Source of the DNA: a virus
Length of the DNA stretch: 17,607 nt
Virus record (IMG/VR): IMGVR_UViG_3300035682_001995
Direction: 5' to 3' (one strand)
The number at the start of each line of letters is the position of its first letter. Positions within the stretch are counted from its first letter, which is position 1. The notes under the pieces are model-generated. The model was given only the letters and a program-made list of their open reading frames with translations, was not told the origin of the DNA and did not search any database. A program made the translations under genes and the position numbers. Positions 4,434 to 14,942 of the stretch are shown in pieces.

Positions 4434-4558
4434 TGGTAGGCCCCCTCCGGTTCGAACGGAGATATGCTCGCTTATAGTTTGGGGATTGAGGAGTTGAACC
4501 TCATTGTGTAACCTACATCCCCCGAGGCGAGTTCATTCACCAATTATGATAGAGGCCC
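4434..4558 (-). tRNA. tRNA-Pro (anticodon CGG) with a 48-nt insert between positions 37 and 38 (insert 4473..4520). CCA is encoded.
   Basis: Hand-folded cloverleaf. Acceptor: GGGCCTC/GGGGCCT (two G-U pairs). D-arm: TCAT-AATTGGTGA-ATGA. Anticodon stem: CTCGC...GCGAG, with loop CTCGGG + insert + A. Variable region: CATAT. T-arm: CTCCG-TTCGAAC-CGGAG. Then A-CCA. Confidence 0.6.
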
Positions 4559-4602: not shown

Positions 4603-4706
4603 CACATAATATATAAATAAAGATGGTAATCCTGTTGCTACGAACAACAGGAAACCCGGCTTGGAGCCCCAGGCTGTCCCACACATATATTTACTTGGAG
4701 ATTCCT

Positions 4707-5195
4707 ATGTTTATCAATAACAAATATACCTCTTGGTATATCTCATTGGTTAGTAATGCTCAAACTAGAAATTTAGATAGATCTGTCTATACTGAAAAAC
4801 ATCATATTATTCCCAAGAGCCTAGGGGGCAATGATGCAAAAGATAATCTTGTTAGACTTACTGGCAAAGAACATTTTGTAGCACATTTATTACTTACCAA
4901 AATGACCTTTGGGGTCAATGCAAGAAAAATGGCCTTTGCCTTGTGGCGGATGACACAAGATAATAAGAAACGAGACAGGTTCCGAATGTCTTCTCGGCAA
5001 TATCAAAATATCAAAACTGGCATGAGCGAGGCAATGAAGGTACATAACAAAGGCAAGAAACTTTCTCCAGAGCATATTCAGAAAGTAAAAGAGGGAATAG
5101 CAGCAAAAGGCGGGGCACATAATAAAGGCAAATCTATGAGCGAGGATCAGAAACACACGCGCCTTTTGGCTAGGGGTGATTGGGAATGTTCATAA
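4707..5195 (+). CDS. HNH homing endonuclease with NUMOD3-like repeats. It ends at a TAA that interrupts a NUMOD3 motif.
   Basis: Translation reads MFINNKYTSWYISLVSNAQ...EKHHIIPKSLGGNDAKDNLVRLTGKEHFVAH (the HNH motif), then repeated GKKLSPEHIQKVKEG / GKSMSEDQKHTR blocks. GGAG sits 6 nt upstream of the ATG at 4707. The track ORF starts at 4623. Confidence 0.8.
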   Translation: MFINNKYTSWYISLVSNAQTRNLDRSVYTEKHHIIPKSLGGNDAKDNLVRLTGKEHFVAHLLLTKMTFGVNARKMAFALWRMTQDNKKRDRFRMSSRQYQNIKTGMSEAMKVHNKGKKLSPEHIQKVKEGIAAKGGAHNKGKSMSEDQKHTRLLARGDWECS

Positions 5196-13634: not shown

Positions 13635-13774
13635 TGGTGCCCCCGGCCCGATTTGAACGGGCACAGCCTTTCCAGGCCAGCGGATTTCTGTTGGACTATC
13701 AGGATTGAACTGATATGAGCACCTGTTGCTCTTGTCCCTAAGTCCGCGTCGTCTACCGATTCCGACACGGGGGC
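13635..13774 (-). tRNA. tRNA-Leu (anticodon TAG; class II with a long variable arm) with a 51-nt insert between positions 37 and 38 (insert 13686..13736). CCA is encoded.
   Basis: Acceptor: GCCCCCG/CGGGGGC. D-arm: TG-TCG-GAATCGGTAGA-CGA, close to E. coli tRNA-Leu GGCGGAAUUGGUAGACGCG. Anticodon stem: GCGGA...TCCGC, loop CTTAGG + insert + A. Variable arm: GCCT-GGAA-AGGC. T-arm: GCCCG-TTCAAAT-CGGGC. Ends A-CCA. Confidence 0.6.
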
Positions 13775-13886
13775 AAACTCTACTATCTTCATAGTAATAT
13801 AGTATCATAGTTTAGTCAACTGTATAAATATAGGTACGGATCACGATGCGCCAACATCCATCCGCTCTAGACAAGAAAGGAAGATC

Positions 13887-14561
13887 ATGTCCAGCGTAAC
13901 TGATATTTATTCTATCTGCCCCAAGTGTGGCAATAGTTTTGATCCCTATTCCAAATATGGTGCCAAGAAATTCTGTAGCAGAAAATGCGCCAATGCGAGA
14001 ATACATTCACAAGAAGTAAAAGACAAAATTAAATCAAAATTGAAAGGAAGACCTAGCCACAATAAATGATTGCCATCTCCCAACCGTGGAAAAAAATTTG
14101 GATCTAAAAAAGATATAATTAAGATTTGCCCCATTTGTTCTAAATCATTCTCGGCAGCTAGAGTTACCTGTTCGAGAATCTGTTTCAAACAAAGAGCAAC
14201 AGAAAATGCACTCAAACAAGAAAAACATGGAGGAGGACACAAGGGCAAATACAAAGGATTTCATTGTGATAGTACATATGAACTAGCCTTTGTGATTTGG
14301 CATTTGGATCATAATATTGAGATTGCTAGATCAACTTCTGTGTATGATTACACCTACAAGAACAAAAAACACAAATATCGTCCTGATTTTGTAGTGGAAG
14401 GTGTGGAAATTGAAATCAAGGGATTTATGAGCAAGAGAGCTCAAGCCAAAAAGGATCAATGTCCCAATGTTATGGTAGTGGATAAGATAGACATACAAGT
14501 CTACATCAAGTATGTTCGCGAAACATACAAAGTAAGAGACCTGCGGAAGTTGTATGAATGA
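13887..14561 (+). pseudogene. Homing-endonuclease-like gene: tandem zinc ribbons plus a NUMOD-like motif plus a PD-(D/E)xK nuclease domain. It is split by an in-frame TGA at 14067-14069.
   Basis: Track ORFs 13887..14069 and 14070..14561 are in the same frame (...GRPSHNK*LPSPNRGKK...). Duplicated CPKCGNSF...CSRKC and CPICSKSF...CSRIC ribbons. NUMOD-like HSQEVKDKIKSKLKG. YRPDFVVEGVEIEIKG fits the PD...ExK pattern. SD AAAGGAAG lies upstream of the ATG at 13887. Confidence 0.5.
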
Positions 14562-14675: not shown

Positions 14676-14813
14676 TGGTGCCCGAAGCCAGATTTGAACT
14701 GGCATTGTCTTTCAACAAACGGTTTTTGTTTAGGCTATTGGGAGTGACCCAACAAGGGTATCAAAATACCTTGCCTCTGAGACCGTCGCGTCTACCGATT
14801 CCGCCATTCGGGC
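14676..14813 (-). tRNA. tRNA-Leu (anticodon CAG; class II) with a 51-nt insert between positions 37 and 38 (insert 14725..14775). CCA is encoded.
   Basis: Acceptor: GCCCGAA/TTCGGGC. D-arm: TG-GCG-GAATCGGTAGA-CGC. Anticodon stem: ACGGT...ACCGT, loop CTCAGA + insert + A. Variable arm: TTGT-TGAAAG-ACAA. T-arm: GCCAG-TTCAAAT-CTGGC. Ends A-CCA. Confidence 0.6.
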
Positions 14814-14942
14814 AATCTTCAAACAAACCTTGCTGTCACATACTATCTGCTGTTGATAAACATAATATACAGCCTAGAGCCACCAATGTCAACCCACTAT
14901 TCCTGGCTTTTAACAAGGGTGTTCTTATTGTAAGCGTTGGGT

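Follow-up and report, generated by a model that had tools for sequence, protein, structure and literature searches.

A proposed 51-nucleotide mini-intron within the anticodon of a phage tRNA-Leu(UAA) gene and a family of similar inserts in related phages

The viral DNA record IMGVR_UViG_3300035682_001995 (IMG/VR; 17,607 nucleotides (nt), referred to in its entirety as the window) carries on its minus strand a transfer RNA (tRNA) gene, located at 13635–13774, whose anticodon loop is split by a 51-nt insert. An earlier sequence-only reading of this DNA described the gene as tRNA-Leu(UAG) interrupted at position 37/38. Comparison with related phages places the insert, with high confidence, at 13688–13738 (GGGAC…CAACAG), between A35 and A36; with this junction the mature loop would be CUUAAAA and the product tRNA-Leu(UAA), an assignment that carries the same high confidence as the junction. 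The explanation that we favor as a whole, and consider reasonably probable, is that the insert is a mini-intron of a tRNA(UAA), removed by structure-guided excision and subsequent ligation. The gene and its parts are listed below (minus strand).

13635..13774 (−): interrupted tRNA-Leu(UAA) gene; class II, 140 nt (89 nt once excised), CCA encoded
13739..13774 (−): 5' exon; acceptor stem, D arm, GCGGA (13743–13747), then C32 U33 U34 A35 (junction placed from orthologues and the family rule)
13688..13738 (−): predicted 51-nt type-A mini-intron, GGGACAAGAGCAACAGGTGCTCATATCAGTTCAATCCTGATAGTCCAACAG; 95.7 bits with the type-A covariance model, of which it is itself one of the training sequences
13635..13687 (−): 3' exon; A36 A37 A38, TCCGC (13680–13684), variable arm, T arm, 3' strand of the acceptor stem, ACCA
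13791..13819 (−): sigma-70-like promoter match upstream of the gene; TTGACT, 17 nt, TACTAT (9 of 12 positions; consensus match only)

The interrupted tRNA-Leu gene

The acceptor stem of the gene comprises 7 base pairs (bp; GCCCCCG/CGGGGGC), the D arm is of the Leu type (TCG-GAATCGGTAGA-CGA), and in the 3' part the long variable arm is followed by a T arm of canonical form (GCCCG-TTCAAAT-CGGGC), A73 and a CCA that is encoded. Between GCGGA and TCCGC, which form the anticodon stem, there are 58 nt, compared to 7 in a normal tRNA. The gene was missed by ARAGORN in default mode and by Rfam at the gathering threshold. It was detected by the intron mode of ARAGORN (-i), together with interrupted tRNA genes at 4434–4558 and 14676–14813, and this call agrees with a UAA anticodon. 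The unspliced gene gave no report with RF00005; a score of 23 bits, again for the unspliced sequence, was obtained with the class-II-like tRNA-Sec model with a 55-nt gap. The Rfam tRNA model gave 44.8 bits with a 53-nt gap for the 14676–14813 gene.

The minimum-free-energy fold of the whole precursor is a cloverleaf in which the anticodon stem extends into a three-way junction. The anticodon arm with the insert has a folding z-score of −3.84, and none of 200 shuffled sequences was equally stable. Together with the ARAGORN intron-mode call, these results bear out the earlier description of a class II Leu cloverleaf with a 51-nt insert in the anticodon loop. Tests set beforehand included the scoring of the exons as a tRNA: when joined at 35/36, they were called tRNA-Leu(taa) by default ARAGORN. 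The reported closeness of the D arm to E. coli tRNA-Leu was also found, the D-loop segment GGAATCGGTAGAC being identical in E. coli leuZ. Overall identity (68.6% to leuZ, 67.5% to leuW) does not discriminate between these genes, and the spliced tRNA had no BLAST match in E. coli genomes, masked or unmasked. Promoter matches in the region numbered six, versus 3.6 ± 2.1 expected, by consensus scoring only.

Architecture of the insert

The elements of the insert, in 5' to 3' order on the minus strand, are as follows.

13738 (−): first intron nucleotide, unpaired G (C in the orthologues of contigs L188 and L190); formerly read as anticodon position 36
13734..13737 (−): P1, 5' strand, GGAC; pairs with 13693–13696
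13732–13733 (−): linker AA
13717..13731 (−): hairpin A, GAGCA-ACAGG-TGCTC; loop ends in a conserved GG (D-loop-like)
13716 (−): linker A
13697..13715 (−): hairpin B, TATCAG-TTCAATC-CTGATA; 7-nt loop fits the T-loop consensus, G-C closed
13693..13696 (−): P1, 3' strand (P1'), GTCC
13688..13692 (−): single-stranded tail AACAG, 5 nt, a length shared by 23/23 family members under the 7-nt-loop rule

The closing helix P1 and hairpins A and B form a three-way junction. Hairpin B is the hairpin with a T-loop-like loop noted in the sequence-only reading. In the modeled fold, P1 stacked on hairpin B resembles an acceptor/T-arm minihelix. The GG element and the T-loop would likewise resemble the elbow of a tRNA, and on our own reading the insert may be viewed as a miniature tRNA without an anticodon arm.

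A family of inserts in related phages

Relatives of the window phage were found via its homospermidine synthase, and the neighborhoods were taken from related large phage contigs of 74–485 kb (designated by L numbers). Further members were obtained by DNA-pattern scans of IMG/VR and JGI metagenomes. In total, at least 23 distinct interrupted tRNA genes of one kind were identified, with inserts of 43–62 nt and three core types. The host tRNAs are Leu(UAA), Leu(CAA), CAU, Arg(UCU), Asn(GUU) and class I UAA. Among the sequences examined, the inserts were seen only in tRNA anticodon loops and only in one clade of large freshwater and groundwater phages. All share a common layout, in which the anticodon stem is followed by 3–4 exon nt, 1 unpaired intron nt and P1 (4–7 bp), which encloses the core; 3' of P1' there are 5 unpaired intron nt, 3–4 exon nt and the second strand of the anticodon stem.

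The type-A core has the form GAGCA-NNNGG-TGCTC, A, yATCAG-TTCAATC-CTGATA, which the tRNA-Leu(UAA) insert fits. Type B consists of a single strand with AGGU and a T-arm-like hairpin, and is exemplified by the CAU gene of the window and by Arg genes from L023, L066 and L084. Type C, represented in the window by Leu(CAA), has an AAGG…CCUU hairpin and a second hairpin whose loop is mostly not a typical T-loop. Types A and B have in common a GG-containing D-like element and a hairpin with a G-C closed T-loop, TTCRAnn. The two further members of the window are the following.

14676..14813 (−): tRNA-Leu(CAA) with a predicted 51-nt type-C intron at 14727–14777
4434..4558 (−): tRNA(CAU) with a predicted 48-nt type-B intron at 4476–4523, after C34

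With the type-A model, whose training set does not include it, the tRNA-Leu(CAA) insert reaches 47.7 bits. The 4434–4558 gene had been labeled tRNA-Pro(CGG), both by the sequence-only reading and by ARAGORN, a label that has to be replaced by tRNA(CAU). Its body matches the uninterrupted tRNA(CAT) of L023, including G1·U72, C4-G69, C5-G68 and U6·G67; among the Pro codons of the window, CCG is used least (6/143). The earlier statement that independent tRNA genes of the window carry the same kind of insert holds for three genes and is now extended to the set of 23, which argues against random disruption.

All eight metagenome matches to the type-A core fall inside tRNA genes. A strict nested-T-loop pattern matched 59 loci, in which only the L066 and L084 groups were new members, and the matches listed for a looser version of this pattern were mostly due to chance. 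A scan of IMG/VR with a Leu D-loop plus T-loop pattern returned no family member and two unrelated odd tRNA-like genes. No match was obtained in the IMG/VR DNA scan anchored on tRNA-Gln or in the IMG/VR protein scan with the homospermidine synthase.

Position of the junction and identity of the anticodon

The gene taken by itself permits five junction placements that leave a 7-nt loop, giving UGA, UAA or UAG as the anticodon. The sequence-only reading chose CTTAGG/51 nt/A, i.e., an insert at 13686–13736 in position 37/38 and a TAG anticodon. Comparative evidence selects CTTA/51 nt/AAA at 13688–13738; the G of the supposed TAG is the variable first nucleotide of the insert, and the anticodon is TAA. 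The predicted spliced junction, at 35/36, thus reads GCGGACUUA/AAAUCCGC.

Orthologous genes were informative in this respect. Those of L188 (c7549–7687) and L190 (610–749) share exons and insert core with the gene of the window, whose CTTAG is CTTAC in both. A 37/38 junction would therefore produce UAC (Val) on a Leu body, and only CTTA+AAA (UAA) yields Leu. The orthologue of L183 (6460–6593) agrees with the window gene in the anticodon stem and nearly so in the acceptor stem, and reads CTTG…AAAA, so that a 37/38 junction would give UGG (Pro) and only CTT+AAAA (UAA) gives Leu.

The number of unpaired nt between the anticodon stem and P1 is exactly 13 in 23/23 members, distributed as 4+9 or 5+8; the tRNA-Leu(UAA) gene, with 5+8, obeys this rule. 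Excision of 1 nt, the segment from P1 to P1', and 5 nt (the 1+5 rule) leaves a 7-nt loop in every one of the 23. The resulting anticodons are UAA or CAA on all ten Leu-like class II bodies and UCU on all three Arg-like bodies, the other members giving CAU (five), GUU/Asn (one) and class I UAA (four). When 37/38 is applied instead, the anticodon fits the tRNA body in only 3/23 members, and Val, Pro, Arg, Gly, Ser or His anticodons appear on these bodies. A fixed 34/35 junction was also considered and rejected, as it gives UGA in the tRNA-Leu(UAA) gene. A kink-turn in the 13-nt internal loop was rejected too, for lack of a consensus.

Counterparts lacking an insert were found for CAU (L023), Arg(UCU) (in the window and in L020), Leu(CAA) (L005, L084, L188) and UAA (L084, L125, L138). 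The tRNA genes follow a conserved cluster order, Leu(CAA)-Gln(UUG)-tRNA(UAA)-Gly(UCC)-Arg(UCU), with uninterrupted members in L084, L125 and L138. The order in the window, Leu2-Gln-Leu1-Gly-like-Arg, matches this cluster, and a UAA tRNA is therefore expected in the slot of the 13635–13774 gene. Codon usage in the window (TTG 83, AGA 52, CAA 90, GGA 45, CCG 6) fits UAA, CAA, UCU and CAU anticodons. The insert is assigned to 35/36 of a tRNA-Leu(UAA) because the orthologues, the geometric rule, the uninterrupted counterparts, synteny and codon usage all favor this placement.

A canonical 37/38 intron in a tRNA-Leu(UAG), removed in the manner of archaeal and eukaryal tRNA introns, is accordingly very improbable: the sequence of the gene does permit CTTAGG/51 nt/A, with the plausible loop CUUAGGA and G37, and ARAGORN calls this spliced form tRNA-Leu(tag), but the orthologues (C in place of G in L188 and L190, CTTG in L183) would carry Val or Pro anticodons on Leu bodies, the anticodon matches the body in so few members, synteny puts a UAA tRNA in the slot, there is no bulge-helix-bulge (BHB) motif, and no splicing endonuclease was seen in the window and related loci.

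Some relatives have class-I-sized UAA tRNAs (∼76 nt, short variable loop) in the slot occupied in the window by the class II Leu(UAA). These were found in L084 (c8712–8787), L125 (1185–1260), L138 (c6648–6723), L180 (1691–1817), L186 (c1202–1329), L192 (c7974–8101) and L193 (460–587), and some of them carry the same type-A intron.

Covariation and selection

Covariation was analyzed in a set of 12 distinct type-A members. Contigs L004–L018 are variants of the same phage with >98% identity and for this reason were of no use in this analysis. Standard pairs occupy 96.7% of the proposed pair cells, compared to 25–37% when the partners are slid, and the observed covariation score was reached by none of 500 column shuffles. 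The third pair of P1 is A-U, C-G, U-A or G-C among the type-A members, and the anticodon stem flanking the insert covaries at four of its five pairs. When all types are taken together, P1 occurs as no fewer than 12 different helices, each fully complementary. A model trained on type A alone recovers types B and C (47.7, 33.3, 21.1 and 18.6 bits), and no free-standing copy of the element was found in 346 kb scanned with the type-A covariance model.

The exons form intact cloverleaves in 23/23 members, across phages whose homospermidine synthases are only ∼70% identical. Intact exons, compensatory changes in the anticodon stem and the constant of 13 nt point to selection both on the spliced product and on the RNA fold of the insert. 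In orthologous tRNAs the junction shifts between 34/35 and 35/36, with its distance from P1 fixed.

Proposed excision and ligation

As judged from the comparative sequence data, the insert would be a true intron, cut out precisely from 1 nt ahead of P1 to 5 nt beyond P1', with the tRNA halves rejoined. We have moderate confidence that it is spliced at the RNA level. The sliding junction and the three cores that share only their geometry suggest that the machinery most likely reads the intron's own fold, and we infer that such recognition is more plausible than a conserved catalytic core or a reading of the tRNA body. For the fuller proposal, we see about an even chance: the inserts would be genuine introns removed by a route undescribed in bacteria or their viruses, with the fold recognized, possibly by RNase P and a further nuclease that processes tRNA ends, the insert cut out at constant distances from P1, and the halves joined by an RNA ligase. 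Such a splicing mechanism would probably be new for bacterial systems. The specific enzymes are suggested with low confidence.

The 5' cut could, speculatively, be made by an endonuclease of the type that processes tRNA ends, for example RNase P. A stack of 12 positions, the number found in a tRNA, would result in type B from the first intron nucleotide together with P1 (6–7 bp) and the T-like stem (5–4 bp). Position 72 and a 4-nt 3' overhang would then have their counterpart in the 5-nt tail, and the 5' junction would coincide with the expected RNase P site. A second cut might then occur in the A-rich tail, and the 3'-OH and 5'-P ends might be sealed by an ATP-dependent RNA ligase of the Rnl type, both steps being speculative. 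At the DNA level, the introns may spread or persist by cassette exchange. RNA ligases (Rnl1, Rnl2 or RtcB) are common in jumbo phages (PMC7824862). Ligases, kinase/phosphatases and splicing endonucleases were all absent from the results of a Pfam scan of 72 open reading frames (ORFs) near the tRNA clusters. The idea that P1' pairs with the exon as an internal guide was considered and rejected, since such pairing is not conserved.

Several observations weigh against this proposal. The sequences of hairpins A and B are conserved without covariation, hairpin B being almost invariant in the 12 type-A members, and the support for pairing in them comes from energy and conservation only; the members come from related phages, which means that the shuffle controls overstate their independence. 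The 12-position stack is found only in type B; type A, including the tRNA-Leu(UAA) insert, has 11, and type C does not conform to the scheme. Nor does the 5-nt tail resemble CCA, and we know of no bacterial nuclease documented to cut in such a tail. Finally, no RNA ligase, Pnkp, RtcB or splicing endonuclease was seen in the window or the related loci, which cover about ±10 kb of genomes of 74–485 kb.

Three other explanations of the insert were weighed against excision guided by its fold. That it is a new, very small ribozyme, self-splicing or self-cleaving and self-ligating without protein, is unlikely, although it comes out slightly ahead of the two that follow. The type-A core is almost invariant across different host tRNAs, which would suit a catalytic core, and no protein pathway is known in bacteria for introns of this kind, whose excision must be precise. 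Against this, inserts of 43–62 nt are, as is generally known, far below the size of any known self-splicing intron, the three cores share boundary geometry without any common catalytic core, and the nucleotides at the splice sites vary (first intron base G or C, last base G, A, C or T). The insert had no match to Rfam intron models at E ≤ 10, and at the same permissive threshold no known small self-cleaving ribozyme (hammerhead, twister, pistol, hatchet, hepatitis delta virus-like and others) was matched. The hammerhead was also rejected on structural grounds, as the junction strands leave no room for its core.

Somewhat less probable than a ribozyme is that the insert is never removed, the genes being disabled tRNA copies (selfish DNA) or being kept interrupted to escape homing endonucleases, with no functional tRNA-Leu formed. 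Homing-endonuclease-like ORFs do lie among the tRNA genes, alleles with and without an insert are exchanged between identical flanks, and the near-identical type-A core in different tRNA genes suggests mobility. Nevertheless, the exons have remained intact in every member and the anticodon stem shows compensatory changes right beside the insert, while the constant number of unpaired nt always permits a 7-nt loop with an anticodon that fits the body. P1 varies and stays complementary, unlike a terminal repeat recognized by a transposase, and there is no target-site duplication. Moreover, no Leu(UAA), Leu(CAA) or CAU gene other than the interrupted ones was seen in the window. A DNA element resembling a miniature inverted-repeat transposable element was rejected, as there is neither a conserved terminal repeat nor a target duplication.

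A similarly low probability is assigned to the nested mini-tRNA being the product itself, set free by tRNA-processing enzymes as a small tRNA-like RNA, for instance a decoy for tRNA-targeting host defenses or for a tRNA-binding enzyme, with the tRNA mainly a carrier whose halves may be religated. Its elbow-like features (the GG-ending loop and the canonical T-loop) show strong conservation; RNase P and RNase Z are generally known to release tRNA-like RNAs elsewhere, such as mascRNA; and one intron of the Lak megaphages "may itself encode a tRNA" (PMC6784885). On the other hand, type-C cores, which lack a good T-loop, keep the same boundaries, the constraints on the exons imply that the tRNA matters too, and free-standing copies of the element were found neither among the metagenome matches nor in the 346-kb scan.

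Comparison with known systems

The nearest precedent is the group of tRNA introns from Lak megaphages. Devoto et al. (2019) described these as "enigmatic" and highly conserved, phage tRNA introns having by their account been unreported before (PMC6784885). They are 79–141 nt long and have a 5' hairpin, a closing stem of 7–8 bp and a nested tRNA-like module (Table S6), and the junction of the one that may encode a tRNA is offset from the software prediction (PMC6784885). Our literature search found no later work explaining the Lak introns or similar phage tRNA introns.

The inserts described here share the theme of the Lak introns, with another geometry and size. Both are non-group-I inserts in the anticodon loops of tRNAs of very large phages, highly conserved in sequence, present or absent between related genomes, and offset in their junctions from the calls of tRNA software; each has, nested within it, a tRNA-like module in which a stem closes the T-arm. 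In contrast, the Lak introns have a 5' hairpin of ∼30 nt and a spacer before the 7–8-bp stem, whereas the tRNA-Leu(UAA) insert has no 5' hairpin and a P1 of 4 bp. The 3' junction of the Lak tRNA-Thr lies, on our reading of the printed sequence, 1 nt past the stem, compared to 5 nt past P1' here; the family studied here is also shorter (43–62 nt) and its 5' junction lies 1 nt before P1. The sources differ as well (gut versus freshwater and groundwater), as do the phage clade and the host tRNAs, and the Lak tRNAs have no encoded CCA. The family is best filed as a compact, geometrically defined variant of these poorly understood phage tRNA introns.

Archaeal BHB introns are likewise short and may lie at varying positions, their boundaries are set by local RNA structure, and they are removed by cutting and ligation. 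The arrangement of a 3-nt bulge, a 4-bp helix and a 3-nt bulge is, however, absent here. Only two of the four central pairs (C32-G and U33-A) can form in the tRNA-Leu(UAA) gene and they are not conserved in the family, in agreement with the sequence-only reading, which had seen no convincing BHB. The boundaries lie at unequal distances from P1 (1 and 5 nt) and not at 37/38. The setting is also of bacterial type, with a sigma-70-like promoter match, an encoded CCA and a peptidoglycan hydrolase, and no EndA homologue was seen in the window and related loci.

The group I introns of cyanobacterial and plastid tRNA-Leu(UAA) occupy the same host gene at nearly the same site inside the anticodon, and the L183 gene (6460–6593) is interrupted exactly at the classical group I site, U34/A35. 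An association with homing endonucleases is a further similarity. Group I introns also occur in tRNA genes of Patescibacteria (PMC13011429) and other bacteria. Nevertheless, group I introns usually exceed 200 nt, compared to 51 nt here, and the insert has no P3–P9 core. The U that precedes the 5' splice site of group I introns is not conserved in the family, the 5' exon of the tRNA-Leu(UAA) gene ending in A, nor is a final G, which this insert has but which is replaced by A, C or T in other members.

Among structures processed by RNase P or RNase Z, the tRNA-like domain of transfer-messenger RNA, mascRNA and minihelices resemble the insert in having an acceptor-like helix on a canonical T-loop arm, possibly a GG elbow, and no anticodon arm. 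They differ in that the present element is nested in the anticodon loop of a real tRNA, has a non-CCA tail and requires ligation; a role of RNase P is conjectural. The repair system of phage T4 (Pnkp and Rnl1 acting after PrrC) provides an example of a phage RNA ligase joining tRNA halves in the anticodon loop. It mends damage and removes no intron, and no ligase gene was seen here in the window and related loci.

Genomic context and mobility

The window is phage DNA, with a tail-fiber or spike gene, HNH and GIY-YIG homing endonucleases and an endolysin. A DNA search of INPHARED phages revealed no close relative, the only match being tRNA-Gly-like. Two features among the tRNA genes are listed here.

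4623–5195 and 12173–13015 (+): free-standing HNH / GIY-YIG homing-endonuclease genes

Comparison of the variant contigs showed exchanges at tRNA genes. In L010 (2819–4025), a different ORF of 248 amino acids replaces the tRNA-Arg and GIY-YIG segment of the window (11940–13038), with breakpoints at the edges of tRNA genes. L005 (3287–3369) has a different, uninterrupted tRNA-Leu(CAA) between flanks identical to those of the window; this allele is a cassette swap and not a precise intron loss. The assemblies of L004, L014, L015, L016 and L018 end at the 5' edge of tRNA-Leu(CAA) (window ∼14810–14819), and that of L012 ends inside the Leu(UAA) intron (window 13694), which fits either population polymorphism or breakage of assemblies by repeated intron cores. 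The type-A core is near-identical in Leu(UAA), Leu(CAA) and class I UAA tRNAs of phages whose homospermidine synthases are ∼70% identical. Given the neighboring homing endonucleases, the allele swaps and the near-identical cores, cassette exchange or intron mobility appears likely.

A conserved module at 5516–11287 (−) comprises genes for homospermidine synthase (9884–11287), an ORF without assignment (8880–9617), a PP-loop ATPase (8046–8648; TilS/QueC-like) and a major-vault-protein-like ORF (5516–8086). L020 has an R2K ATP-grasp protein at the position of the 8880–9617 ORF, and the module recurs in parts in the related phage loci examined. A link to wobble-cytidine modification of the CAU tRNAs is conceivable.

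The tRNA-Gly(UCC)-like gene at 13041–13117 (−), with a non-canonical T-loop (CGCGCTA), was missed by both ARAGORN and Rfam. It is ∼84% identical to tRNA-Gly of T4-like Aeromonas phages and fills the Gly slot of the cluster. Between tRNA-Leu(UAA) and tRNA-Gln lies an endonuclease-like ORF (13887–14561, +) with an in-frame TGA at 14067–14069. Public gene calls for sister contigs give a continuous product of 224 amino acids for this ORF, and read-through, a pseudogene or a calling artefact are possible. Recoding of TGA was rejected, as the large ORFs are intact in genetic code 11.

Genes for amber-suppressor tRNA(CTA) are present in related phages: L020 (18182–18256), L180 (14580–14655), L183 (15972–16046) and L084 (c531–604). 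One related phage (L019, 4141–4845) has a release-factor-1-like gene. The suppressor tRNAs and this gene hint at TAG recoding in the clade.

Other short anticodon inserts were observed in unrelated viral contigs, i.e., L108 (1514–1630), L063 (c227–349) and L184 (670–836). They take the form of CTC/40 nt/ATAA, of CTT/35 nt/AAAA on a Leu-like body, and of a 90-nt insert, respectively. Short non-group-I tRNA inserts may thus be broader than the mini-intron family. The IMG/VR contigs L146, L152, L155, L160, L162, L045, L070 and L137 contain recurrent tRNA-like genes with an AGTCAGG/CCTGACT acceptor, large variable internal inserts and inconsistent ARAGORN labels.

Significance

To our knowledge, the tRNA genes of bacteria and of their viruses are thought to hold only self-splicing introns of group I or II, and we know of no way in which bacteria remove tRNA inserts as small as these. 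An insert of 51 nt, which cannot be a group I or group II intron, nevertheless interrupts the anticodon in tRNAs apparently needed by the phage. Splicing of the insert, if it occurs, would imply that an unrecognized excision-and-ligation pathway is active in infected bacteria. The maturation of these tRNAs would then depend on repair enzymes of the phage or of the host, and the element could move between tRNA genes.

Standard annotation misses such genes or misassigns their anticodons, e.g., CAU read as Pro, Arg as Gly, and Leu as Ser, Cys or Phe, which distorts inferences about codon usage and recoding in phages. The substrate is now precisely defined by its junctions, a geometric rule and 23 natural variants, and this makes the "enigmatic" phage introns of 2019 testable in vitro. 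As a compact tRNA-like module, the insert may also be of use as a scaffold in studies of RNase P, elbow-binding proteins or ligases.

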